From an uncultured Gammaproteobacteria bacterium (GTDB taxonomy: Bacteria > Patescibacteriota > Patescibacteriia > Patescibacteriales > JAKAJF01), in contig CAZZBC010000002.1 in assembly GCA_964652175.1 (NCBI GenBank), forward strand, positions 1-36,839: a stretch of 36,839 nt of DNA. The letters are read 5' to 3'. The notes below the pieces were generated by a model. It did no database searches, was not told the DNA's origin, and saw nothing but the letters and a program-made list of their open reading frames with translations. Shown piece after piece: positions 5,794 through 34,052 of this stretch. How positions within the stretch are numbered: the first letter of the stretch is position 1; the number at the start of each line of letters is the position of its first letter. A program made the position numbers and the translations under genes.

Positions 5794-5910
5794 ATCCCGT
5801 TAGAAGCCGCGATCGCTTTACGGGCAACAGAAAAAATAACGTTTACGCAAATATTAAACATAATACATGCAGGTCGATATTATTTGATCGCGATCTGCTT
5901 CTAACGGGAT
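5794..5910 (+). promoter_or_regulatory. Long-range helix that encloses the nrdR start codon
   Basis: ATCCCGTTAGAAGC (5794-5807) pairs perfectly with GCTTCTAACGGGAT (5897-5910), and CGCGATC (5808-5814) pairs with GATCGCG (5886-5892). The A and T of ATG 5909 are inside the helix. Confidence 0.5.
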
Positions 5911-6376
5911 GAGATGCCCTGTCTGTTATTACGAAGATACTAAGGTGGTTGATTCCCGCGTGGCGCCGGACGGCCTTTCCATAAGAAGAAGGAGGGAATG
6001 CTTGAAGTGCGATTTCCGCTTCTCCACCAGCGAAGAGATGGAAATTCTTGATTTGGCGGTTGTCAAAAGGAACGGGACGCGCGAATCGTATTCGCGGGAT
6101 AAAATCATCAGGGGGCTTAGAAAAGCGCTGGAAAAAAGGCCGATTACCGAAGATAAATTTAAAAAACTTGTCCATTCTATAGAGCGCGATTTGCAAGCTT
6201 TGCGAAAAAACGAAGTAACAACCGGAGAAATCGGCCAGATTGTCATGAAAAATTTAAAAAAAGCGGACCAAGTCGCTTATATCCGCTTCGCGTCGGTCTA
6301 TGAATCATTCAAAGACGCGCATACGTTTAGGCGGGAATTAAATAAGTTGTTACGGAATAAAAAAAATAGAAAATAA
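5909..6376 (+). CDS. nrdR: Transcriptional repressor NrdR
   Basis: MRCPVC...CLKC zinc ribbon followed by an ATP-cone. It lies directly upstream of nrdD. Confidence 0.92.
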   Translation: MRCPVCYYEDTKVVDSRVAPDGLSIRRRRECLKCDFRFSTSEEMEILDLAVVKRNGTRESYSRDKIIRGLRKALEKRPITEDKFKKLVHSIERDLQALRKNEVTTGEIGQIVMKNLKKADQVAYIRFASVYESFKDAHTFRRELNKLLRNKKNRK

Positions 6377-6389
6377 GTAATATTTTTCC

Positions 6390-8474
6390 ATGCAAAATAT
6401 TATTACTCAAATTTTAAAACGCTCCGGCGAGATCGCTCCTTTTGACCGGAAAAAAATTACCGACGCTATTTTTAAGGCGACGGCCGCGGTCGGCAAGCCG
6501 GACCAAAATTTGGCCGAGAAATTGAGCGAAGAGGTGGTGGCGATGCTTAGCGAAAAATTTCATTCCCGCTCCATTCCGGCCGTGGAAGAAATCCAGGATA
6601 TAGTGGAAGAGGTTTTGATTAAAAACCGGCAGATTAAAGTAGCCAAATCTTACATCCTTTACCGCGACCAGCGCGCGCGTTTGCGCGAAATGAAAGCCAC
6701 CATGGTTGCTTCCGACGAGTTGATGGAAAGTTATCTCAAGCAAACCGATTGGCGCGTCAAAGAAAATTCCAACATGAGCTATAGCCTGCAAGGGCTTAAT
6801 AATCACGTCGCTTCGGTTATCTCTTCCAATTATTGGCTTAATAAGGTTTATACAGCCAACATTAGAGACGCCCACCAAAACGGCGATTTTCATTTGCATG
6901 ATTTGCAGATTCTGGCCCCTTATTGCGCCGGCTGGGACTTGAAGGATTTGCTTATTCAAGGGTTTGGCGGCGTTTCCGGCAAGGTGGAATCCGGGCCGGC
7001 CAAACATTTTCGCACCGCCCTGGGGCAGATTATTAATTTTTTTTACACTCTGCAGGGCGAAGTGGCCGGAGCCGAAGCTTTTTCCAATTTTGACACCTTT
7101 TTAGCGCCTTTTATCAGGCATGACAATTTAAGTTACAAGGAAGTCAAACAATGCTTGCAGGAATTTTTGTTTAACATCAATGTTCCCACCCGCGTCGGCT
7201 TTCAGACTCCTTTTACTAATATTACCATGGATCTTGCGCCATCCAAGGCGACAGGCGAGGAAAATGTGATTGTCGGCGGCAAGGCCCAGAAGGAGAAATA
7301 TAAAGATTTTCAGGAAGAGATGAACATGCTCAATATGGCGTTTGCCGAATTGATGATGGAAGGAGACGCTAAAGGACGGGTTTTTACTTTCCCCATCCCG
7401 ACTTATAACATAACAAAAGATTTTCCCTGGGATTCGCCCGTAGCGCAAAAGATTTTTGAGATGACCGCCAAATATGGCATTCCCTATTTTTCCAACTTCA
7501 TAAATTCGGACATGAATCCGGACGACGCGCGTTCCATGTGCTGCCGGCTGCGGCTGGATAACCGTGAATTGAAAAAACGCGGCGGCGCGCTGTTCGGCGC
7601 CAATCCTTTGACAGGTTCGATCGGGGTGGTGACCATTGATTTGCCAAGAGTCGGTTACTTGTCAAAAGGAAAAAAAGAATTTTTCAGCCGCCTTGCCGAA
7701 TTAATGGGCATAGCCCGAGAAAGCTTGGAAATAAAAAGAAAAGTGCTTGAGGATTTAACCGAGAACGGCCTTTATCCTTACGCCAAGCATTATTTAAGAG
7801 GAGTAAAACAAAGATTCGGCGGTTATTGGAATAATCATTTTTCCACCATCGGCATCATCGGCATGAACGAAGCCCTGCTCAATTTTGCGCCGATCAAAGC
7901 TTCCATCGCTTCAAAAGAGGGCCAGAAATTCGCCATAGAGGTCTTGGATTTTATGCGGGAAACAGCAATGGATTATCAAAACGAAACTAATCATTTGTAT
8001 AATTTGGAAGCGACGCCAGCTGAGGGGGTGACCAGGCGGCTTTCTCGCATTGATAAAGACAAGTATCCGGACATAATAGTTGCTAACGAAGAAGTGGTCA
8101 AAGCCGGCAAGGCCTCTCCTTACTACACCAACTCTTCCCAATTGCCGGTTAATTATACCGAAGATTTTTTTGAGGCCCTTGATTTGCAGGATGATTTACA
8201 GACAAGATATACCGGCGGCACGGTGCTCCACGGTTTTATCGGCGAATCATTAAATTCCGCGGAAGGGGTTAAAAAATTAGTTAAGGCGATTGCCTATAAA
8301 TATCATCTCCCATATTTTACCATTACGCCGACTTTTTCCATCTGCCCCAAGCACGGTTACATTTCCGGTGAACATTTCTTTTGTCCCAAATGCGATGAAG
8401 AAATCGGCTATGTCGGTTCGGTCAGTTCGGTCGGTTTGCGGGAGTCAAGATTAAATAGTTTAAACGCAAAATAA
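6390..8474 (+). CDS. nrdD: Anaerobic ribonucleoside-triphosphate reductase (class III) NrdD, body lacking the glycyl-radical motif
   Basis: N-terminal ATP-cone (ILKRSGEIAPFDRKKI). The catalytic core includes the CCRLRLD motif, and a CPKH...CPKC zinc ribbon lies at 8343-8393. The last 23 residues (GYVGSVSSVGLRESRLNSLNAK) are repeat-derived, and no RVxGY motif is present. Confidence 0.88.
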   Translation: MQNIITQILKRSGEIAPFDRKKITDAIFKATAAVGKPDQNLAEKLSEEVVAMLSEKFHSRSIPAVEEIQDIVEEVLIKNRQIKVAKSYILYRDQRARLREMKATMVASDELMESYLKQTDWRVKENSNMSYSLQGLNNHVASVISSNYWLNKVYTANIRDAHQNGDFHLHDLQILAPYCAGWDLKDLLIQGFGGVSGKVESGPAKHFRTALGQIINFFYTLQGEVAGAEAFSNFDTFLAPFIRHDNLSYKEVKQCLQEFLFNINVPTRVGFQTPFTNITMDLAPSKATGEENVIVGGKAQKEKYKDFQEEMNMLNMAFAELMMEGDAKGRVFTFPIPTYNITKDFPWDSPVAQKIFEMTAKYGIPYFSNFINSDMNPDDARSMCCRLRLDNRELKKRGGALFGANPLTGSIGVVTIDLPRVGYLSKGKKEFFSRLAELMGIARESLEIKRKVLEDLTENGLYPYAKHYLRGVKQRFGGYWNNHFSTIGIIGMNEALLNFAPIKASIASKEGQKFAIEVLDFMRETAMDYQNETNHLYNLEATPAEGVTRRLSRIDKDKYPDIIVANEEVVKAGKASPYYTNSSQLPVNYTEDFFEALDLQDDLQTRYTGGTVLHGFIGESLNSAEGVKKLVKAIAYKYHLPYFTITPTFSICPKHGYISGEHFFCPKCDEEIGYVGSVSSVGLRESRLNSLNAK

Positions 8475-8484
8475 AAATAAAATA

Positions 8485-8544
8485 CCCACAAATCAACAAA
8501 TCCTTAGTTTGTAAATTTGTAAAAAATTTGTAGATTTGTAGGAG
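8485..8544. mobile_element. 60-nt MITE-like element with terminal inverted repeats (CAAAT family)
   Basis: The left TIR is CCCACAAATCAACAAAT. The reverse complement of the right TIR ATTTGTAGATTTGTAGG matches it at 15 of 17 positions. Related copies lie at 32081-32140 (partial) and 35766-35864. Confidence 0.7.
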
Positions 8545-8550
8545 AATAAT

Positions 8551-8691
8551 ATGAGTCCCATTGAAGTAAAAAGACAGCCTTGCGAAGTTTACAGCCGCGT
8601 AACCGGGTATCTGCGGCCAGTTCAGCAATGGAACGACGGCAAGCAGGCGGAATATTTCAACCGGAAAACTTTTAAAGTGGAAAAAGAATAA
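8551..8691 (+). CDS. Stand-alone NrdD C-terminal glycyl-radical domain (46 aa)
   Basis: My translation is MSPIEVKRQPCEVYSRVTGYLRPVQQWNDGKQAEYFNRKTFKVEKE. It carries the class III RNR glycyl-radical signature (SRVTGY...WN.GK). GGAG lies at 8541-8544, 6 nt before the ATG. The frame differs from the nrdD body. The ORF is too short to appear in the supplied track. Confidence 0.8.
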   Translation: MSPIEVKRQPCEVYSRVTGYLRPVQQWNDGKQAEYFNRKTFKVEKE

Positions 8692-8778
8692 TTAGCTCGA
8701 CAGCTCGATAGCGGCTTCGCCGTTTAGCTCGTTAGTATTTATTACTAATAAGCTAACGAGCTAATAAGCTAACGAGCC

Positions 8779-9555
8779 ATGCTTATCGGTGGTTTGCAAA
8801 AATTTAGCTTGCTTGATTACCCGGAACATTTGGCCGCGATTATTTTCACGCAAGGGTGCAATTTCCGCTGTCGTTTCTGTTATAATCCCATGCTTGTCGC
8901 TTCTACGGAGAGCGGCAAATTTAAAAAAGGTCATCATCTTATTCACCCGTCCACCAAAGATTTTGGTGAGCGGGTAAAAGAAGGTGATCTTTTTGATTTT
9001 CTAAAATCACGGCTCGGCAAATTGGAGGGCGTGGTGATTACCGGCGGCGAGCCGACTTTGCACTCTGATTTGCCCGAGTTCATTGCCAAGATAAAAAAGA
9101 TGGGTTTTAAGGTGAAATTGGATACGAACGGCACCAATACGGAGATGCTTCTTCTTCTCCTTGCTAAGGAGGGGGTCGGGGTGAGGTTTGGTGGCGAGCC
9201 GGCATTAGTCGACTACATCGCCATGGATATTAAGGCCCCTTTGGAAAAATATGAAAAAGTGGTCGGAGCCGCAGTTGATTTTACTAAAATCAAACAAAGT
9301 ATTAAAATAATAATGAGTAGCGGTTTGCCTTATGAATTTAGAACGACCGTCGTGCCGGGCCTGCATTCCAGGGCGGACATCGTCAAAATGGGCGAGTTAA
9401 TTAAAGGGGCTAAAAAGTGGTATTTGCAATTTTTCAAAAGTGACATTGATTTGGTGGATGAGAAATTAAAAGGCAAAAAGGCGTTTAGCAAGAAAGAAAT
9501 GGAGGAAATGGCAGAGGTGGGGAGGAGGTATGTTAAAAAATGCGAAATTAGATAA
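8779..9555 (+). CDS. nrdG: Anaerobic RNR activating radical-SAM protein NrdG
   Basis: CNFRCRFCYN is a CX3CX2C radical-SAM cluster motif. The GGEPTL and KLDTNGT motifs are present. It lies directly downstream of nrdD. Confidence 0.88.
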   Translation: MLIGGLQKFSLLDYPEHLAAIIFTQGCNFRCRFCYNPMLVASTESGKFKKGHHLIHPSTKDFGERVKEGDLFDFLKSRLGKLEGVVITGGEPTLHSDLPEFIAKIKKMGFKVKLDTNGTNTEMLLLLLAKEGVGVRFGGEPALVDYIAMDIKAPLEKYEKVVGAAVDFTKIKQSIKIIMSSGLPYEFRTTVVPGLHSRADIVKMGELIKGAKKWYLQFFKSDIDLVDEKLKGKKAFSKKEMEEMAEVGRRYVKKCEIR

Positions 9556-9674
9556 TAGATATAATTTTTAGAATTTTTAATTTTATAATTTTATAAATAA
9601 TATTTCAATTTTTAATATTAAATATTTAGATATTAAAAAATTATTTAGAAATTAAAAATTAGAAATTAAAAATT

Positions 9675-14353: not shown

Positions 14354-14390
14354 TTGAATTCTTAAAAGGATCCATTTAAGGGTTTGAATA

Positions 14391-14429
14391 CCCCGCCCCA
14401 GTTTGAAAAACTGGGGCGGGGTTTGTTTT
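14391..14429 (+). terminator. Strong rho-independent terminator after the pilin gene
   Basis: CCCCGCCCCAG / CTGGGGCGGGG 11-bp GC stem followed by TTTGTTTT. Confidence 0.85.
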
Positions 14430-14462
14430 GGAGGATGTTTGAGGTATAATGGAAACAGAATT

Positions 14463-14576
14463 AATTTCTAATTTCTAAATCCTAATTCCTAATAAATTTA
14501 TAAATGTCCAATTTTGTCATTGGAAATTTATCTATTGGGCATTGATTAGAAATTAGACAATTAGAAATTAGGAATT
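14463..14576. repeat. AT-rich inverted-repeat element (TTAGAAAT family)
   Basis: The left arm is AATTTCTAATTTCTAAATCCTAATTCCTAA and the right arm is TTAGAAATTAGACAATTAGAAATTAGGAATT. Related tracts lie at 2331-2362, 9640-9674, 13846-13885, 17955-17990 and 35866-35890. Confidence 0.7.
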
Positions 14577-14583
14577 TTAAATT

Positions 14584-16989
14584 ATGTTGAAGGAAAAACT
14601 AATCAAAATCTGCGGCCATATCATAGAGGCGAACATCTTGGCGATTATCTTCCTCGTTCCTGTTTATTTTTCTTTTTTAAAAGAAACCTACAACACCTTT
14701 GAACTTAATAAATTAGTTGTTTTCAGGGTTTTGCTCGCGTTGGCGATTGTTTTTTATGCGGCTAAGATATTTTTGGAAGGAAAAATAAATTATTTTGCCA
14801 AACCAAAATTTTTTTTGCTCGCGGTTTTAATAATCGCCGCTTTTGCCGCTTCAACCGTTCTTTCCATTCATCCCCAGTTGAGCCTATGGGGAAATTACGA
14901 ACGCCAACAGGGATTTTACAGTTTGATAAATTATTTATTATTTTTTATTTTACTCCTTTTTCATTTAAGAAGTTGGCAACAGGCGAGGAGAATTATCGCC
15001 ACAATAATATCCGCTTCGGCGTTGGTGTGTTTTTACGGTTTTTTGCAACATTTTAACATTGATTCGTTAAGCTGGAAGGAAGCCGCGCTTTACACCGGCC
15101 GTATTTTTTCCACGCTCGGCCAGCCGAATTTTTTGGGGCAATATTTAATAATGGTTTTGCCGTTGACGGTTTTCGCGGCCATTTTTATATTCAAAAGATT
15201 AATCAGCCGTTTTTTAGCCATTATTTTAATCGCCGCCCAGCTTGCCTGCCTTATCTTCACTTACAGCCGCGCCGCCTGGCTAGCGGTCTTGGCTTCACTC
15301 CTGACATTTATCCTTACTTATCTTTACGTGAAGAATTATAAAAGACTGTTGGCGGGTTTTCTCGCGTTTTGTTTTGTGGCGGGGAGTTTAATTATAATTT
15401 TAAATATTTCCCCCAAGCAAAATCCGAATGAAACCGTTAATATTTTTAGCAGGGCCAAAAGCATTTTTGATTTAAAAAGCGGTTCAAATAAAATACGTTT
15501 TTTTTATTGGCAGTCGGCGTGGAGCGAATTAAAAAGCGCGTCTTGGCAAAGAAAAATGTTCGGCTACGGCGGAGAGACCGAAGCGTCTATTTTTGTCAAG
15601 TATTACCGGCCGGAATGGGGCGTGTATGAAACCATCAATTCTTTTCCGGACCGGGCGCATAATGTTATTTTTGATATGCTTTTGCAGTTTGGTTTAGTTG
15701 GACTGACGGCAGTTGGTTTATTTTATTTTTTTATTATCAGAGAGGCGGTTAAATTTATTAGATTGTCCGAAAAATTTTTTCCCGTCATTCCCGCGAAAGC
15801 GGGAATTCAGAATTCTTCTGACATATCACCATCCTGGATCCCCGAGTCAAGCCCGAGGATGACAGAGGATGAGCCCGGAATGACAGAAAAATATTGGCTC
15901 CTCATTTTTCTCCTCGCCTCGCTCGCCGGCTATTTTGTCAATAATTTATTCAGCTTTTCTTTGACGGTCGGCTATGTTTATGTATTTGTTATTTTAGCGA
16001 TGGCATTGTTTATTGTTAACGGGGAAATTAAAAGAAAGGTGAACTTAAACAGGCTAAGTTATATCTCGCGCTTGCTTATTTGGCTGGCTTTGGCGGGTGC
16101 GAGCGGAGTGTTTGTTTATTATTATAATATTTTGCCGTTTGCCGCGGACTATTATTACATGAGAGCGAAAAAGGCGGAAGCGGCCGATTGCCGGCGGGTT
16201 TTAGATTATATTGACAAAGCCATAAACTTGAATTCGGTGAGCGATATTTACAAGAAGCGTTATATTTATCACGGCCTGAATTGTTTTTCCGCCGTTGGTT
16301 CAAAAGAAGATCAAAACGCTTTATACGGCAACATAATCTCCCGCGCCAATTCCATCGGCTGGCGCGAATACGAATTTGCCACTCTAATCAATATGGCGCA
16401 CGCCAAATCGCTTTTCGCTTTTTACATCAACCCCGTCTTTTACGCGGCGGCGGAGAAAGATTACGCCCGCATCATCGGCATTAACCCCTGGCTTACGGTC
16501 GGCTACCGCGACTTGGCGCGCCTACAGCTTTGGCAAGGGGATTATGACGGAGCCATCGCCAACCTTAAAAAAGCCATTGAAATTGTTCCGCCGCTTGACC
16601 ATCCTTATCTTAACAGCGACCATCGTGATGAAATTAAAAAAGAGCTTGTCAATCTATACGAATCGTTGGGGTTTTCTTACGCCCACAAAGAAGAATGGCA
16701 AACGGCGTTGAGTTATTACCATGAAGTTTTAAGGATTGATCCGCGTTATTTGCCGCTTTACAAAAGTGTTGCCGACGTTTATTACAGCCAAAGAGATTTT
16801 GACAAGGCGATTTGGTATAATAAAAGGGGAGCGGCGTTTAATCCCGCCGACTATAAATGGCCGCTGGCCATCGCCATACTTTACAAGGAAAGGGGCGATA
16901 AGGAAGCGGCCGTGGAATACGCCGCCAGCGCCTTGGTTTTGGCGCCGGAAAATAAACAAATTAAAGATTTTATCACTCAAATAAAATGA
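14584..16989 (+). CDS. O-antigen ligase/Wzy_C-family polytopic membrane protein fused to C-terminal TPR repeats
   Basis: About 12 TM spans. It carries the YSRAAWLA and DRAHNVIFDMLLQFGLVGL motifs typical of Wzy_C (WaaL/PilO/PglL-type) enzymes. The C-terminal 250 aa are TPR-like. Confidence 0.8.
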   Translation: MLKEKLIKICGHIIEANILAIIFLVPVYFSFLKETYNTFELNKLVVFRVLLALAIVFYAAKIFLEGKINYFAKPKFFLLAVLIIAAFAASTVLSIHPQLSLWGNYERQQGFYSLINYLLFFILLLFHLRSWQQARRIIATIISASALVCFYGFLQHFNIDSLSWKEAALYTGRIFSTLGQPNFLGQYLIMVLPLTVFAAIFIFKRLISRFLAIILIAAQLACLIFTYSRAAWLAVLASLLTFILTYLYVKNYKRLLAGFLAFCFVAGSLIIILNISPKQNPNETVNIFSRAKSIFDLKSGSNKIRFFYWQSAWSELKSASWQRKMFGYGGETEASIFVKYYRPEWGVYETINSFPDRAHNVIFDMLLQFGLVGLTAVGLFYFFIIREAVKFIRLSEKFFPVIPAKAGIQNSSDISPSWIPESSPRMTEDEPGMTEKYWLLIFLLASLAGYFVNNLFSFSLTVGYVYVFVILAMALFIVNGEIKRKVNLNRLSYISRLLIWLALAGASGVFVYYYNILPFAADYYYMRAKKAEAADCRRVLDYIDKAINLNSVSDIYKKRYIYHGLNCFSAVGSKEDQNALYGNIISRANSIGWREYEFATLINMAHAKSLFAFYINPVFYAAAEKDYARIIGINPWLTVGYRDLARLQLWQGDYDGAIANLKKAIEIVPPLDHPYLNSDHRDEIKKELVNLYESLGFSYAHKEEWQTALSYYHEVLRIDPRYLPLYKSVADVYYSQRDFDKAIWYNKRGAAFNPADYKWPLAIAILYKERGDKEAAVEYAASALVLAPENKQIKDFITQIK
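15784..15886. mobile_element. Palindromic element pair in frame inside the Wzy_C gene
   Basis: GTCATTCCCGCGAAAGCGGGAATTCAGAAT ... CTGGATCCCCGAGTCAAGCCCGAGGATGACAG is translated VIPAKAGIQNSSDISPSWIPESSPRMTEDEPGMT. It is near-identical to 33126-33180 in gatA. Confidence 0.8.
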
Positions 16990-18397: not shown

Positions 18398-20155
18398 ATG
18401 CCCAATATGCCTAAAAAATTAAATCCCGCTCCTTTTTTCTATTTTTTCTTAACGGTTTTCCTTGCCCTCGGCCTCTCCATTTCTTTGCAATCCCTTTTGG
18501 CGGCCTGGACAAATCCGACGCAAACGCCGCCCGGCGGCAATCTTGACGAGCCGGTTAATGTAAGTACGACTGATCAGGCGAAATTGGGCGGGCTGGGGAT
18601 AGGAGGAAACTTCACGGTTAACGGCGCGTCTTCTTTTACCGGCAACGTCGGTATCGGGACGGCGAGTCCAGGAGCGAAATTGGATGTAGCGCAGGCAACG
18701 AATGGTCAGAATGGGGCGATAGTTCGCATGCCGCTCGGATCCGAAGCGACGGCGTCAGGCATTAAAGTTTATGGCTATTCTCCCGCCGTTGAGCTGTTGG
18801 ACAAGGATTCGATTATGAACTGGCACATCGGTATTGACGATAATGACGATAACAAGTTTTTAATCGGTCGTGGATATGGTCCTGGTCAAGGAGTTGTTCA
18901 AGCCATTACTATTGATACTTCGGACAACGTCGGCATCGGGACGACGGGACCGAGCTACAAACTTGATGTGCAGGGCGGAGACATTAATGCTTCCGGCGTT
19001 TATCGCAAGGGTGGAACAAGCGGAACATCTTTAAGTTGCAGTTCAGGGCAAGTTATTAAAACGGCAACAGTTTCCGGCGGAATTGTTACTGCCGGCTCAT
19101 GCACCGCCGACGACACCGGCGGAAGCGTTGGTGGTTCCGGCAATGGCAATTATCTTGCAAAATGGACAACCGGCACTTCATTGGAAAGTTCATTAATTTA
19201 TGATAACGGCACCAACATTGGCATCAATACGGCAACCCCGGTTAGAGCCCTGGATGTTGTTAGTAAGAGCACTGATATTAATTATTCAACCGCGACTTTT
19301 TCCAATGACAGAAGCGGAGGGTACGGCGTTGCCATTGGTTCTCGTTATAACGAATTATGGGGCCGTATTCAGGCCGTAAGTGGTCTTCCCGCGGGCCCGA
19401 CTATAAATGCAAATTTAGCGCTTAATCCCAATGGCGGCAACATCGGCATCGGGACGGATAGTCCGGCAATAAAATTGGCGATAGGCGACACGGATACCGG
19501 TTTGCAATGGATAAGCGACGGAAATTTGGCCATATATACAAATAGTGTAGAGCGAATGAGAATTGATAGCTCCGGCAATGTCGGCATCGGAATTAGTCCT
19601 TCTACTAAATTACATGTGAATGGCAGTATTAAATCTGAAGCTGGCATTAACGCAACAACTGCTTTATACGCCCCAGTATTTACCGATACCGACAATACGA
19701 GTTATTCTGTGGATCCGAACGGCACTTCAAAAACCAATTATTTTTATCGCTACGCCGGTTTTAATGGTGTTGAATATGACGCTAACAATGGCGCTTATTA
19801 TATTGATCCCAATAATAATTCCGTTTTTAACAATATTTACGCGACCGCTTATTATTACAACTCCGATGTCCATTTAAAGAATAGTATCAGCCCCATTTCC
19901 AGCCCGTTAGATAAAATTTTAAAACTGAACGGCCGGGAATTCATTTGGAAAGACAGCGGCAAAAAGGATGTCGGGCTTATCGCCCAGGAAGTGGAAAAAG
20001 TTTTTCCGGAATTGGTGTCAACCGACGAAAAAACGGGATTAAAATCGGTCCAGTACGGCAATTTGGTCGCGCCCCTGATTGAAGCGGTCAAGGAACAGCA
20101 GGCGGAGATAGAGGAGTTAAGGGTGGAAATAGGAGAACTTAAGGCGGAGCAATAA
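18398..20155 (+). CDS. Signal-anchored tail-fibre-like protein with C-terminal S74-type intramolecular chaperone/autoprotease domain
   Basis: N-terminal hydrophobic anchor and repeated NVGIGTxxPxxKLDV motifs. The C-terminus is N/SDVHLKNSISP...LNGREFIWKD...VGLIAQEVEKVFPELV...VQYGNLVAPLIEAVKEQQAEIEEL, the pattern of phage tail-spike/endosialidase chaperone domains. Confidence 0.75.
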   Translation: MPNMPKKLNPAPFFYFFLTVFLALGLSISLQSLLAAWTNPTQTPPGGNLDEPVNVSTTDQAKLGGLGIGGNFTVNGASSFTGNVGIGTASPGAKLDVAQATNGQNGAIVRMPLGSEATASGIKVYGYSPAVELLDKDSIMNWHIGIDDNDDNKFLIGRGYGPGQGVVQAITIDTSDNVGIGTTGPSYKLDVQGGDINASGVYRKGGTSGTSLSCSSGQVIKTATVSGGIVTAGSCTADDTGGSVGGSGNGNYLAKWTTGTSLESSLIYDNGTNIGINTATPVRALDVVSKSTDINYSTATFSNDRSGGYGVAIGSRYNELWGRIQAVSGLPAGPTINANLALNPNGGNIGIGTDSPAIKLAIGDTDTGLQWISDGNLAIYTNSVERMRIDSSGNVGIGISPSTKLHVNGSIKSEAGINATTALYAPVFTDTDNTSYSVDPNGTSKTNYFYRYAGFNGVEYDANNGAYYIDPNNNSVFNNIYATAYYYNSDVHLKNSISPISSPLDKILKLNGREFIWKDSGKKDVGLIAQEVEKVFPELVSTDEKTGLKSVQYGNLVAPLIEAVKEQQAEIEELRVEIGELKAEQ

Positions 20156-26418: not shown

Positions 26419-26421
26419 GAG

Positions 26422-26488
26422 CTACGAAATTACGAAAAAATACGAAAGTACGAATTCGTAATTTCGTAAAAAATTCGCAATTTCGTAG
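26422..26488. repeat. Inverted-repeat element (CGAAAT family)
   Basis: CTACGAAATTACGAA...central GAATTC...TTCGCAATTTCGTAG. It is placed immediately after a stop codon. Confidence 0.7.
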
Positions 26489-26520
26489 AGAATTAATTGG
26501 TAAATAAAAGTTAAGCGTTT

Positions 26521-27842: not shown

Positions 27843-28910
27843 ATGAAAAAACCATCACAATCCAAAAAAGAAATGAGAAAACTGCGCGTAAAATTGGCGG
27901 CGGCTTTGTTTTTGCTTGCCGTCGCGGCAATAAGCGCCGCTTTTTTGCCTGCCGATTTTTTAAAACAAGGCGTTCTAGCGGCCTTAACAGGCAATTATAA
28001 CAAAGTGAACGGCGATTCGTTAACTGTCACTGATTGGAATAATTTGGATAACGACTTTATTAATGTCGGCACAAGCGGCCAAAACCAAACGATGCTGGGC
28101 GGGCTGGGGATAGGGGAAGGTTTTACAGTTGGTGGCAATTCCTCTTTTACTGGCAACGTCGGTATCGGCACGGCGAGTCCTGGGGAAAAATTGGATGTAA
28201 ATGGCGCAGGCAAGTTTAAACAGGGTTATTTTTCCGCGGTATCGGGAATTCCGTATGTTTGGCTTGGTTATAACGACGGAACAAGAGATTATGGCGTTTA
28301 TCAATGGCAAGCCGCGGGCACCGCTCCTGTTAATTATTTTCAAAATAACGTCGGTATCGGCACGGCGAATCCGGGAGCGAAATTGGAAGTTACCGGAGAC
28401 ATTAAATTATCAGGAGTATCGCCGACTTATAAAATAACCAATTTAATTTCTCCCACCGCCTCAACCGACGCGGCTACAAAAGGTTATGTGGACGCGGCGG
28501 CGGGAGGCGGGGCAACCTGGATGGGTTATACCGCCTCCGCTTATAACGGAAACATGGGCGGCACCAAGGGCATAAATAATTATTGCAACAGCAATTATTC
28601 GGGGAGCCACGCTTGCACTTGGGATGAGATAATAAGATTGGGAAATTCGTATCCATGGTCGTATGAGGCTTGGGTGGTGGATGGAACCAGAGATGTTGAA
28701 TTTGTAAATAGCGGCGTCGGCGACGGCGTTGCTTTTGGTAAAGACGGCCGCGTTATACGAGATGGCGCCGGCACTGATGCCCGCACTTCCACTAATTGTT
28801 TTGGTTGGTCTAATTCTGAATCCGGTCGAAACGGTCCCATAGTTTTGACCAGCGGTTATATGTCTGCCGGCGATTGTTTTTCCACATATAGAGCGCCATG
28901 TTGCAAATAG
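27843..28910 (+). CDS. Signal-anchored tail-fibre-like protein with Cys-containing C-terminal (DUF1554/lectin-like) domain
   Basis: N-terminal anchor. The LGGLGIGEGFTVGGNSSFTGNVGIGTASPGEKLDV block is shared with 18398-20155. An ATKGYVDAA motif is typical of phage fibres. The C-terminus reads YNGNMGGTKGINNYCNSNYSGSHACTWDE...PCCK. Confidence 0.65.
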   Translation: MKKPSQSKKEMRKLRVKLAAALFLLAVAAISAAFLPADFLKQGVLAALTGNYNKVNGDSLTVTDWNNLDNDFINVGTSGQNQTMLGGLGIGEGFTVGGNSSFTGNVGIGTASPGEKLDVNGAGKFKQGYFSAVSGIPYVWLGYNDGTRDYGVYQWQAAGTAPVNYFQNNVGIGTANPGAKLEVTGDIKLSGVSPTYKITNLISPTASTDAATKGYVDAAAGGGATWMGYTASAYNGNMGGTKGINNYCNSNYSGSHACTWDEIIRLGNSYPWSYEAWVVDGTRDVEFVNSGVGDGVAFGKDGRVIRDGAGTDARTSTNCFGWSNSESGRNGPIVLTSGYMSAGDCFSTYRAPCCK

Positions 28911-32080: not shown

Positions 32081-32147
32081 CTCCCACAAATCAACTAACT
32101 CCTAGCGAATTAACAAATATAACAATGAATGCAACGAATTAACTTAT

Positions 32148-32284
32148 TGTCATGCCGGGCTCCCGTTCGCTTCGCCTTGCCTACTCACAACTTTTCGTCC
32201 GTCAATAGAGCTCGCGCGCGGTAAATAGCGATTATCTATTGAAATGTGGCGAAGCAAGGCGGGCGGGTGACCCGGCATCCAGGG
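32148..32284 (-). mobile_element. About 137-nt MITE-like element in the gatC-gatA spacer (inverse orientation relative to the copy inside gatA)
   Basis: Its reverse complement begins CCCTGGATGCCGGGTCACCCGCCCGCCTTGCTTCGCC and ends GGCGAAGCGAACGGGAGCCCGGCATGACAA. These ends match those of 33172-33311, but the cores differ. Confidence 0.75.
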
Positions 32285-32378
32285 TAAGTCAGTAGGTTTG
32301 TTGATATTAAGGTTAGTTTTTAAGATAAAACGTTCGTATCGTTCCCATGGATCCCGGCTCTGCGGCCGGGATGATAAA

Positions 32379-34052
32379 ATGTTTATGCAGTTAAATGAAT
32401 TAACAATTAAGCAAGCCGGAAAAACGTTGGAGAAAGGCGAAATTACTTCGGTGGAACTGACCAGAGCTTGTTTGGCGCGGATAAAAGAGATTAACGGAAA
32501 GTTGAATGCTTGTTTGACGGTTTGCGAGAAAGAGGCGCTGGAAGAGGCGAGAATGGCGGATAAGAGAAAGAAGATGACGGTTGCCCGCGAAGGGCGGGGG
32601 CGAGCCCTGCCCCTACTGGGGATACCGTATTTAGCGAAAGATAACATTTTGACACGCGGCGTTCGCGCGACAGCGGCGTCAAAAATTTTAGAAAATTATA
32701 TCGCCCCTTACGACGCGACAGTAATTAGTAAACTGCGGCAAGCCGGCGCCGTGTTACTGGGTAAAACTAATTTGGATGAATTCGGGCACGGCGCTTCCAC
32801 GGAAAATTCCGTCTTCGGCCCGACGCGCAATCCGCACGATTTGGAGCGCGTTGCCGGCGGTTCATCCGGCGGGTCGGCTGCGGCCGTGGCGGCGGATATG
32901 TGCGTATTCGCTTTGGGCACGGATACAGGAGGATCAACGAGGTATCCGGCCGGCTTTTGCGGCGTTGTCGGCCTGAAGCCGACTTACGGCCGGGCTTCGC
33001 GCTTCGGACTTATGGCTATGACCAGTTCAACCGACGTACCAGGCGTGATTGCTAAAAACGTCCAAGACGCGGAAATTGTGCTAAAGACGATTGAGGGGGT
33101 TGATAAATATGATGCCACGACAACCGTCATTCCCGCGGAAGCGGGAATCCAGAATTTGTCTAGCATATCACCGTCCTGGATCCCCGGGTCACCCGCCCGC
33201 CTTGCTTCGCCCGATTTTAACGGACAAACAGATTTTATCGCTCATGATTTTACTAACGGATTAAAGGTCATAAACGAGCAAGGCGAAGCGGGCGGGAGCC
33301 CGAGGATGACAAATAGTTTAAAGGGCGTGAAGATCGGCTTGCCAAAGGAATATTTTGTTGAAGGGATTATGCCGGAAGTAAAAGAAGCGATTGAAAAAGT
33401 GATTGCAAAATTCAAGGAACTCGGCGCGGAATTTATTGAAGTGAATTTGCCGCATACTAAATACGGCATCCCGGTTTATTATATTATTACTCCTTCGGAG
33501 ATTAGTTCCAATCTGGCGCGCTTTGATGGCATCAAGTACGGTTACAGCGAAATAGAAAAAGACAAAGACCGCGCGCATACGCTCATGAAGATTTATACCA
33601 AAAGCCGCGGCGTTGGGTTCGGGTCGGAAGCCAAAAGAAGAATTATGCTTGGAACCTACGCTCTGTCCGCCGGTTATTATGACGCTTATTATTTAAGGGC
33701 GCAAAGGGTGAGAACGATCATTAAAAGGGAAATGGACGAGGTTTTGGAAAAAGTAGACTGCCTTTTAACGCCGACTTCGCCGCATGTCGCCTTTAAAATA
33801 GGAACACAAAACAATGATCCATTAAAAAATTATTTGGAAGATATTTTTATGTCTCCGGCGTCGTTAGCGGGTCTGCCGGCGATGTCGGTTCCTTGCGGTT
33901 TTGCCAAGTCGCATAAAAGTGACAAGCATCTCAAGCATCTGCCGATCGGCATGCAGTTAATTGGCAAAAGGTTCGGAGAGGAAATATTATTTAAAGCGGG
34001 GCAAGCTTACGAGGAAGCGACGGAATTGCATAAGAGAAAACCGGGAATATGA
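32379..34052 (+). CDS. gatA: Glu/Asp-tRNA amidotransferase subunit A
   Basis: Amidase signature GGSSGGSAAAV. It lies downstream of gatC. I place the start at ATG 32379 (MFMQLNELTIKQA), because the 27 codons upstream in the track ORF are repeat-derived. It contains a 62-codon element at 33126-33311. Confidence 0.9.
   Translation: MFMQLNELTIKQAGKTLEKGEITSVELTRACLARIKEINGKLNACLTVCEKEALEEARMADKRKKMTVAREGRGRALPLLGIPYLAKDNILTRGVRATAASKILENYIAPYDATVISKLRQAGAVLLGKTNLDEFGHGASTENSVFGPTRNPHDLERVAGGSSGGSAAAVAADMCVFALGTDTGGSTRYPAGFCGVVGLKPTYGRASRFGLMAMTSSTDVPGVIAKNVQDAEIVLKTIEGVDKYDATTTVIPAEAGIQNLSSISPSWIPGSPARLASPDFNGQTDFIAHDFTNGLKVINEQGEAGGSPRMTNSLKGVKIGLPKEYFVEGIMPEVKEAIEKVIAKFKELGAEFIEVNLPHTKYGIPVYYIITPSEISSNLARFDGIKYGYSEIEKDKDRAHTLMKIYTKSRGVGFGSEAKRRIMLGTYALSAGYYDAYYLRAQRVRTIIKREMDEVLEKVDCLLTPTSPHVAFKIGTQNNDPLKNYLEDIFMSPASLAGLPAMSVPCGFAKSHKSDKHLKHLPIGMQLIGKRFGEEILFKAGQAYEEATELHKRKPGI
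33126..33311 (+). mobile_element. 186-nt nested palindromic/MITE insertion in frame inside gatA
   Basis: GTCATTCCCGCGGAAGCGGGAATCCAGAAT...CTGGATCCCCGGGTCACCCGCCCGCCTTGCTTCGCC...GGCGAAGCGGGCGGGAGCCCGAGGATGACAA. It is exactly 62 codons long. It lies between the conserved DKYDATT and VKIGLPKEYF blocks. Confidence 0.8.

Follow-up and report, generated by a model that had tools for sequence, protein, structure and literature searches.

The window analysed here, the 36,839 nucleotides of contig CAZZBC010000002.1 (assembly GCA_964652175.1), carries on its forward strand the cluster nrdR–nrdD(large)–nrdD(small)–nrdG, in which the class III (anaerobic) ribonucleotide reductase NrdD is divided between two adjacent open reading frames (ORFs). 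ORF1 encodes a large chain with the catalytic barrel and ORF2 a small chain of 46 residues with the radical glycine. We read this cluster, with a probability of about 0.85, as encoding a functional class III reductase made of two polypeptides and not as a broken gene. Purifying selection has maintained the layout throughout a large Patescibacteria clade and, to judge from its genes, the enzyme has almost certainly not fallen out of use. A sequence-only reading of the window had proposed a two-piece NrdD with a radical element acting in trans at this single locus, a proposal that our comparison extends to a clade-wide architecture.

ORF1 and ORF2 are complementary parts of NrdD

The features on which the argument rests are as follows.

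6390–8474, forward strand: ORF1, nrdD large chain, 694 residues, with an ATP-cone (residues 7–96), the catalytic barrel and a zinc ribbon, and without a glycyl-radical loop
7533–7550, forward strand: SMCCRL, a double-cysteine motif (ORF1 residues 382–387), located by sequence
8343–8393, forward strand: zinc ribbon CPKH-x9-CPKC, a sequence motif with the ligand type of Thermotoga maritima NrdD
8394–8411, forward strand: DEEIGY, a motif specific to split forms, directly after the zinc ribbon
8412–8474, forward strand: variable ORF1 tail (20 residues after DEEIGY) and stop codon, including a TCGGT-rich tract
8551–8691, forward strand: ORF2, nrdD small chain, 46 residues, with the N-terminus MSPIEVKRQPC, the radical loop EVYSRVTG(19)Y and a C-terminal helix
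8605–8607, forward strand: codon of Gly19, the predicted radical site, the glycine of the motif RVxG[YW] being invariant in 63/63 loci

ORF1 matches the Pfam ATP-cone and NRDD profiles, the latter over positions 1–532 of 562 (E 1.6e-181), and its barrel scores above the curated cutoffs of the NCBIfam profiles NF006126 (positions 2–651 of 684, 1057.5 bits against a cutoff of 548) and TIGR02487 (positions 1–549 of 581, 512.9 bits against a cutoff of 326). The sole Pfam match of ORF2 is to NRDD, at positions 531–562 of 562 (E 2.4e-10), and the small chain covers positions 649–683 of 684 in NF006126 and 550–580 of 581 in TIGR02487. Because the matched positions adjoin on three independent profiles (NRDD, NF006126 and TIGR02487), the two ORFs are exactly complementary. 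This alignment, which the sequence-only reading had suggested as a check, bears out both the two NrdD pieces and the ORF positions that it gave, and places the breakpoint where the parts meet.

In sequence order the zinc ribbon comes after the barrel and before the radical loop, as in other members of the family, and its CPKH and CPKC pairs were confirmed where they had been placed. The RVxGY motif is not on the barrel polypeptide and is found on ORF2, so that the function of this loop would be supplied in trans, making the locus a putative variant of the NrdD architecture. On sequence grounds, the detached part comprises the radical loop and the C-terminal helix only, and the large chain keeps the half of the glycyl-radical domain that contains the zinc ribbon. 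SMCCRL probably corresponds to the finger loop, to which the radical would be passed; the published finger-loop classes have either one cysteine or two (PMC9669993). A comparison of ORF2 with solved structures in the PDB returned no NrdD chain at threshold, the query being short and the solved enzymes distant.

As first described, ORF2 lies downstream of ORF1 in another frame (+1 relative to ORF1), although the gap between the ORF1 stop and the ORF2 ATG measures 76 nt (8475–8550) and not 77. An in-frame TAG 4 codons before the ATG of ORF2 rules out an upstream extension of this frame.

The split is conserved among related genomes

We retrieved 80 genome loci, among which 66 are split, 13 are fused and one has a split-type ORF1 at a contig end. 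The sequence of this last locus ends short of the junction and gives no information, leaving 79 informative loci; the 63 split loci that were parsed automatically are the basis of all motif, gap, frame and neighbour counts. The same two-gene layout, with the break at the same residue position, occurs in 66 of the 79 loci. ORF2 is present after every split-type ORF1 that has enough downstream sequence, and the large chain of no split locus carries a glycyl-radical loop.

Both sides of the break are marked by motifs. ORF2 starts with ATG in all 63 split loci, exactly 10 codons before an invariant cysteine in 50 of them, and its N-terminal consensus is MSPIxTxR[QT]xC, within and after which Arg(−3), Cys(0), Ser-Arg and Gly are invariant. 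On the other side, the zinc ribbon of ORF1 is followed by D-x-E-[IMLV]-G-[YF], with the aspartate in 63, the glutamate and the glycine each in 62 and the terminal Tyr or Phe in 60 of the 63 loci. This motif is absent from 13/13 fused forms, in which only 4–6 residues join the ribbon to EVYSR. The distance from zinc ribbon to radical glycine in these fused relatives is 12–14 residues, which corrects the earlier figure of about 20. The remainder of the ORF1 tail in relatives is variable, 12–54 residues long and mostly acidic, and the TCGGT-rich tract of the window can be read as the local version of this poorly conserved tail. The gap between stop and ATG ranges from 0 to 311 nt, and the relative frames 0, 1 and 2 are found in 28, 18 and 17 of the 63 loci, respectively.

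Protein searches gave a concordant picture. The best 120 matches to ORF2 are 43–77 residues long and come from Patescibacteria, Parcubacteria and Falkowbacteria assemblies, and more than 180 standalone homologues were found. The large chains recovered with ORF1 are nearly all 683–715 residues long and 77–84% identical to it, with the last ~3% unaligned. ORF2 has 3061 matches at E ≤ 0.001 in a protein library clustered at 50% identity; the standalone form is diverse, since 136 of the best 150 of these matches are shorter than 100 residues.

Several features of the two chain ends were recorded besides. Cys11 of ORF2 (8581–8583), just before EVYSR, is invariant in 63/63 split forms, and the equivalent position holds C, T or A in fused forms. 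We set aside the idea that this cysteine might act as a fifth, chain-bridging zinc ligand; a complete set of four ligands, matching the T. maritima type, is already present on ORF1. The residue following the radical glycine is Trp (RVVGW) in place of the usual Tyr in ORF2 of 27/63 split loci; in Prevotella copri NrdD, the Tyr after the radical glycine bonds to the substrate-flap network (PMC11226230). A cysteine lies within the last 8 residues of 35/63 ORF2 proteins (SCC, CGC, CPTC), and a cysteine pair (CSTC, CVEC, CSEC or xxCC) closes the ORF1 tail in loci L028, L037, L038, L041, L043, L049, L057 and L063. These cysteine-rich ends recall the cysteine tails that act as redox shuttles in class I and II reductases. 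DEEIGY itself ends in a hydrophobic-Gly-Tyr triplet, an echo of the radical motif VxGY.

Selection and phylogeny

ORF2 is under strong purifying selection. Across 31 aligned core codons from 63 genomes, synonymous sites differ at a proportion of 0.84, which is saturated, against 0.25 for nonsynonymous sites, and entropy at the three codon positions is 0.66, 0.56 and 1.52 bits. The ratio of nonsynonymous to synonymous divergence (dN/dS) is 0.02–0.2 in the 12 pairs involving the window that have the fewest synonymous differences. The small and large chains also diverge in step, with p-distances of 0.33 for ORF2 and 0.32 for ORF1 and a Mantel r of 0.69 that was reached in 0/999 permutations.

In a neighbour-joining tree of the large chains, the split forms fall in one large Patescibacteria clade, and the fused relatives from Syntrophales, Smithella, Bdellovibrionales and Moranbacteria lie elsewhere in the tree, together with three divergent split loci. 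We consider a single origin of the split, early in the lineage, to be probable, with occasional reversal where the two genes fused again.

Three contigs assigned to DPANN archaea by binning (L054, L071 and L075) carry split loci too. The ORF1 stop abuts the ORF2 ATG in L054 and L071, and a strong GGAGG precedes this ATG. Scanning of the neighbours showed that nrdR adjoins nrdD in the archaeal-labelled L071 and L075, which makes their taxonomy uncertain. The split type is further present in 2/15 viral contigs (L089 and L090). In the viral nrdD genes of L090, L092 and L094–L098, the match to the ~670-residue query spans 2.6–3.1 kb, implying large insertions in the barrel region, possibly inteins or introns.

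Alternative explanations for the two-gene layout

The small protein could be an optional spare part that repairs an enzyme with a radical loop of its own, in the manner of GrcA (YfiD), rather than an obligate subunit. It does resemble GrcA/YfiD in size and content, having a short stretch at the N-terminus and, after it, a radical-loop copy (PMC8683613, PMC13450708), and the comparison drawn in the sequence-only reading is apt for a small radical loop acting in trans on a large barrel protein (PMC8683613): the 46-residue standalone protein reproduces such a loop (NRDD 531–562). However, GrcA duplicates the loop of an intact pyruvate formate-lyase and acts only after oxygen damage, whereas the large chain adjoining the small protein lacks its own glycyl-radical loop in every split locus, so the small chain would be obligate and not spare. 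It is the sole source of a radical glycine in the loci examined, although a second full-length nrdD could lie elsewhere in these genomes. The Pfam and NCBIfam matches of ORF2 are to NrdD only, with no homology to the pyruvate formate-lyase C-terminus, and a 2026 review restricts spare-part proteins, among glycyl radical enzymes, to the formate lyases (PMC13450708). We regard a spare-part role as improbable.

A single chain might alternatively be restored by removing or skipping the intervening segment, through a self-splicing intron, a programmed frameshift, ribosomal bypass or split-intein trans-splicing. Ribonucleotide reductase genes are often interrupted by introns and inteins, and nrdD is split in some phages (PMC3653736); in addition, about half of the spacers contain a stable hairpin, and ORF2 shows a weak similarity to a portion of the Npu DnaE intein (E 0.5). 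An intron, a frameshift or a bypass is argued against because each needs a conserved structure or a fixed frame and none needs a conserved initiator Met and N-terminus. Here the spacers are unconserved, span the whole 0–311 nt range and leave ORF2 in any of the three frames, yet the ATG and MSPI N-terminus of ORF2, needless in a spliced or bypassed segment, are conserved. Other than one tRNA, no Rfam family, introns included, reached its gathering score in the window. We also tried and rejected an intein. The ORF1 tail and ORF2 N-terminus together amount to 22–64 residues, too short for an intein fold; no Pfam intein domain was detected; the tail start has no Cys/Ser and no His-Asn precedes the Cys, so that splice-junction residues are absent; and the match to DnaE intein chains in the PDB is non-significant (E 0.5–1) and contains a 3-residue gap directly after the radical glycine. 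Production of one chain by any of these routes is thus very unlikely.

The sequence-only reading attributed the split to the inverted-repeat element in the gap. In this view a small mobile element recently cut nrdD, leaving either decaying pseudogene halves or a recently tolerated break. Two spacers of the cluster bear on it.

8485–8544, forward strand: hairpin (inverted repeat) of the spacer between ORF1 and ORF2, which folds at 8485–8542 (−11.6 kcal/mol, z = −2.2)
8692–8778, forward strand: spacer between ORF2 and nrdG, with a strong hairpin (−35.2 kcal/mol, z −5.9)

The inverted repeat is real, as this fold attests, and so is the family to which it had been assigned: the window contains 7 occurrences of the word ACAAATCWACAAATC, where 0.35 would be expected, and related inverted-repeat copies directly follow the stops of gatC (~32082) and of the DsbA-like gene (35766). 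A palindromic repeat of ~190 nt in frame in gatA indicates, moreover, that such elements do enter genes here. Yet the split is common to 66 of the relatives, with unrelated spacers, and therefore predates the element. When the closest relatives are aligned, their spacers are unrelated in sequence and their hairpins differ, and these relatives are split with or without a hairpin of the window type; the search for an empty site thus yielded genomes that are themselves split around different spacers. The downstream fragment is likewise not the unconstrained remnant that disruption by a miniature inverted-repeat element would leave, its dN/dS being far below 1, and split-specific motifs are conserved on both sides of the break. 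Hairpin spacers are also the rule between the genes of the window: 12 of the 18 spacers folded (≥35 nt) contain one (z −2.4 to −6.2), among them most spacers that reach ~50 nt or more, and the nrdD hairpin ranks among the weaker ones. The hairpin at 8485–8544 looks like the usual intergenic punctuation of this genome and not an insertion scar, and we regard the insertion account as very unlikely.

An artefact of assembly or sequencing, in which a repeat-induced misjoin or an indel creates a false stop and frame change, might be suspected in so repeat-rich a region (TCGGT tract, AT-rich tandem heptamers), but carries negligible weight: the same split architecture appears in dozens of independent assemblies from different groups and assemblers, and misassembly, a concern of the sequence-only reading, is excluded because an identical 46-residue protein (P0002) and the same gene order are found on contigs from four independent samples, the longest holding nrdR, large nrdD, small ORF and nrdG and the other three running from the nrdD end to nrdG.

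Several observations nevertheless weigh against a functional two-chain enzyme of single origin. In our simple neighbour-joining tree, three fused forms (L022, L023 and L025) nest within the split clade. In all three, four residues connect the ribbon to EVYSR. These features suggest that a formerly split gene has fused again; the tree is crude, however, and does not settle whether the split had one or several origins. A recognisable Shine-Dalgarno sequence precedes only 15 of the 63 ORF2 genes. In the window, AGGAG at 8540–8544 ends 6 nt upstream of the ORF2 ATG and, in keeping with the overlap reported earlier, its first two G are paired in the 3′ arm of the spacer hairpin. Profile scans agreed with the sequence-only reading that the window holds no class I or II reductase, and no other ribonucleotide reductase was found among its 20 other large ORFs; the scan covered the window, and a second nrdD or a reductase of another class may be encoded elsewhere in these genomes. 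The two-chain NrdD is known here from genes alone, and the docking of the small chain is proposed from homology only. AlphaFold gave unusable models of the concatenated ORF1 and ORF2 chain, both without an alignment (predicted local distance difference test score, pLDDT, 37) and with a 150-row block alignment of homologues (pLDDT 54, predicted template modelling score 0.39); the latter alignment was probably too shallow, its rows being 70–80% identical.

Proposed mechanism

In T. maritima NrdD, the zinc ribbon, with Cys/His/Cys/Cys zinc coordination, follows the last barrel strand and precedes the glycine loop (PMC4493059), and the glycyl-radical domain of P. copri NrdD (residues 676–739) is highly mobile and invisible in the inhibited state (PMC11226230). 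A break between ribbon and loop is structurally plausible because the ribbon precedes the glycine loop and the glycyl-radical domain is mobile. The break falls within this domain, at a point that already serves as a flexible link in the chain. We propose that the small chain would dock non-covalently into the barrel, at the site occupied by the C-terminal loop in single-chain NrdD. The motif DxE[IM]GY of the large chain and the Arg- and Cys-containing N-terminus MSPIxTxR[QT]xC of the small chain would replace the covalent link and help docking. NrdG would then abstract a hydrogen from Gly19, generating a radical on the small chain that would move to the finger-loop cysteine (SMCCRL), as in ordinary NrdD.

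A more tentative extension, which we consider possible but rather doubtful, is that the 46-residue protein acts as an exchangeable radical cartridge: NrdG would activate a free or loosely bound form before it enters the barrel, and new copies would take the place of any that oxygen had cleaved. If so, class III ribonucleotide reductase would be the first glycyl radical enzyme with an obligate, replaceable radical-bearing subunit, and the small protein would be a natural minimal substrate for the study of activase access to the glycine loop.

Relation to known systems

The locus shares with the single-chain NrdD enzymes of phage T4, Escherichia coli, T. maritima and P. copri the ATP-cone, barrel, finger loop, Cys/His/Cys/Cys ribbon and RVxGY motif, the adjacent nrdG and the upstream nrdR, and its profile match lies far above the equivalog cutoff. 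It differs from them in that the radical loop and C-terminal helix are on a separate 46-residue chain, with the break between ribbon and loop, and in the extra conserved motifs that flank this break (DxE[IM]GY and MSPIxTxRQxC).

Other ribonucleotide reductases are also made in pieces. NrdA-a and NrdA-b of phage Aeh1 are two gene products that assemble without splicing and need the new tails at their break (PMC3045599). Theirs is a class I enzyme, broken at another point by the homing endonuclease gene mobE in the gap, in a single-phage event, whereas here the gap contains no mobile gene and the split is conserved across a clade. The class II pair NrdJa/NrdJb is likewise a conserved two-gene catalytic subunit, with a separate C-terminal accessory part that includes a zinc finger (PMC9669993). 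NrdJb, however, is a sizeable folded protein with redox cysteines and not the radical site, whereas the piece detached here has 46 residues and bears the radical itself, the zinc ribbon staying on the large chain. Finally, nrdD is found in more than one piece in phage T4, Lactococcus phage 949, Aeromonas phage phiAS4 and Clostridium phage c-st (PMC3653736). These splits are sporadic, at varied positions and either tied to mobile elements or unexplained, and none is a conserved detachment of the radical loop.

We found no published description of a split NrdD or of a standalone NrdD radical protein, in a literature search that left most subscription journals outside its reach; within that range, the sequence-only reading was right to call the arrangement undescribed. 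In every described glycyl radical enzyme the radical glycine is on the barrel chain, and GrcA/YfiD provides the sole known trans-acting loop (PMC13450708). A two-chain NrdD, with its radical loop on a separate protein of 5 kDa, would imply that the radical loop can work untethered, and would offer a minimal activase substrate from nature with which to test how a buried loop is presented for hydrogen abstraction. It might also allow small-genome organisms near oxic–anoxic boundaries to renew an oxygen-killed enzyme cheaply. Annotation pipelines label the 46-residue ORF "anaerobic ribonucleoside-triphosphate reductase" or miss it, and metabolic reconstructions may for this reason wrongly score the enzyme as truncated.

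Gene neighbourhood and other features of the window

The two nrdD genes are flanked by a regulator and an activase gene, both intact, as had been read from the sequence and as the profile scans agree.

5909–6376, forward strand: nrdR, transcriptional repressor of ribonucleotide reductase genes (Pfam Zn_ribbon_NrdR and ATP-cone), directly upstream of nrdD
8779–9555, forward strand: nrdG, radical-SAM (S-adenosylmethionine) activase (TIGR02495 NrdG2, 195 bits against a cutoff of 131)

The cognate NrdG activase expected of a NrdD locus is thus encoded nearby, and in 60 of the 63 split loci nrdG directly follows ORF2 on the same strand. The position of nrdR is the same in the related loci L081 and L082.

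Hairpin spacers of the window include 746–860, 8692–8778, 9556–9674, 14354–14583 and 26419–26520, and many spacers end in tandem AT-rich heptamers right before the next start codon. The words differ between spacers, which looks like a genome-wide form of gene punctuation.

The gatA gene (ATG at ~32383, end at 34052) contains an in-frame insertion of ~62 codons (33124–33310). The inserted sequence is the GC-rich palindromic repeat of ~190 nt, which starts with CCGTCATTCCCGCGGAAGCGGGAAT and cuts the Pfam Amidase match in two. The gatC–gatA spacer (32140–32290) contains a copy of the 3′ part of the repeat in inverted orientation, and a 68-nt copy, 88% identical, is found inside an 801-residue Wzy_C/TPR ORF (15782–15849). 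This repeat resembles the palindromic elements inserted in frame in Rickettsia genes.

A different repeat, a 44-nt unit (AACGTCGGTATCGGGACGGCG...), occurs five times over two ORFs, at 18398–20155, which has a Peptidase_S74 chaperone domain, and at 27843–28910. Their repeat regions (18585–19482 and 28096–28390) have in common a 104-nt block of 81% identity, and the two ORFs probably encode repeat-containing, fibre-like surface proteins.

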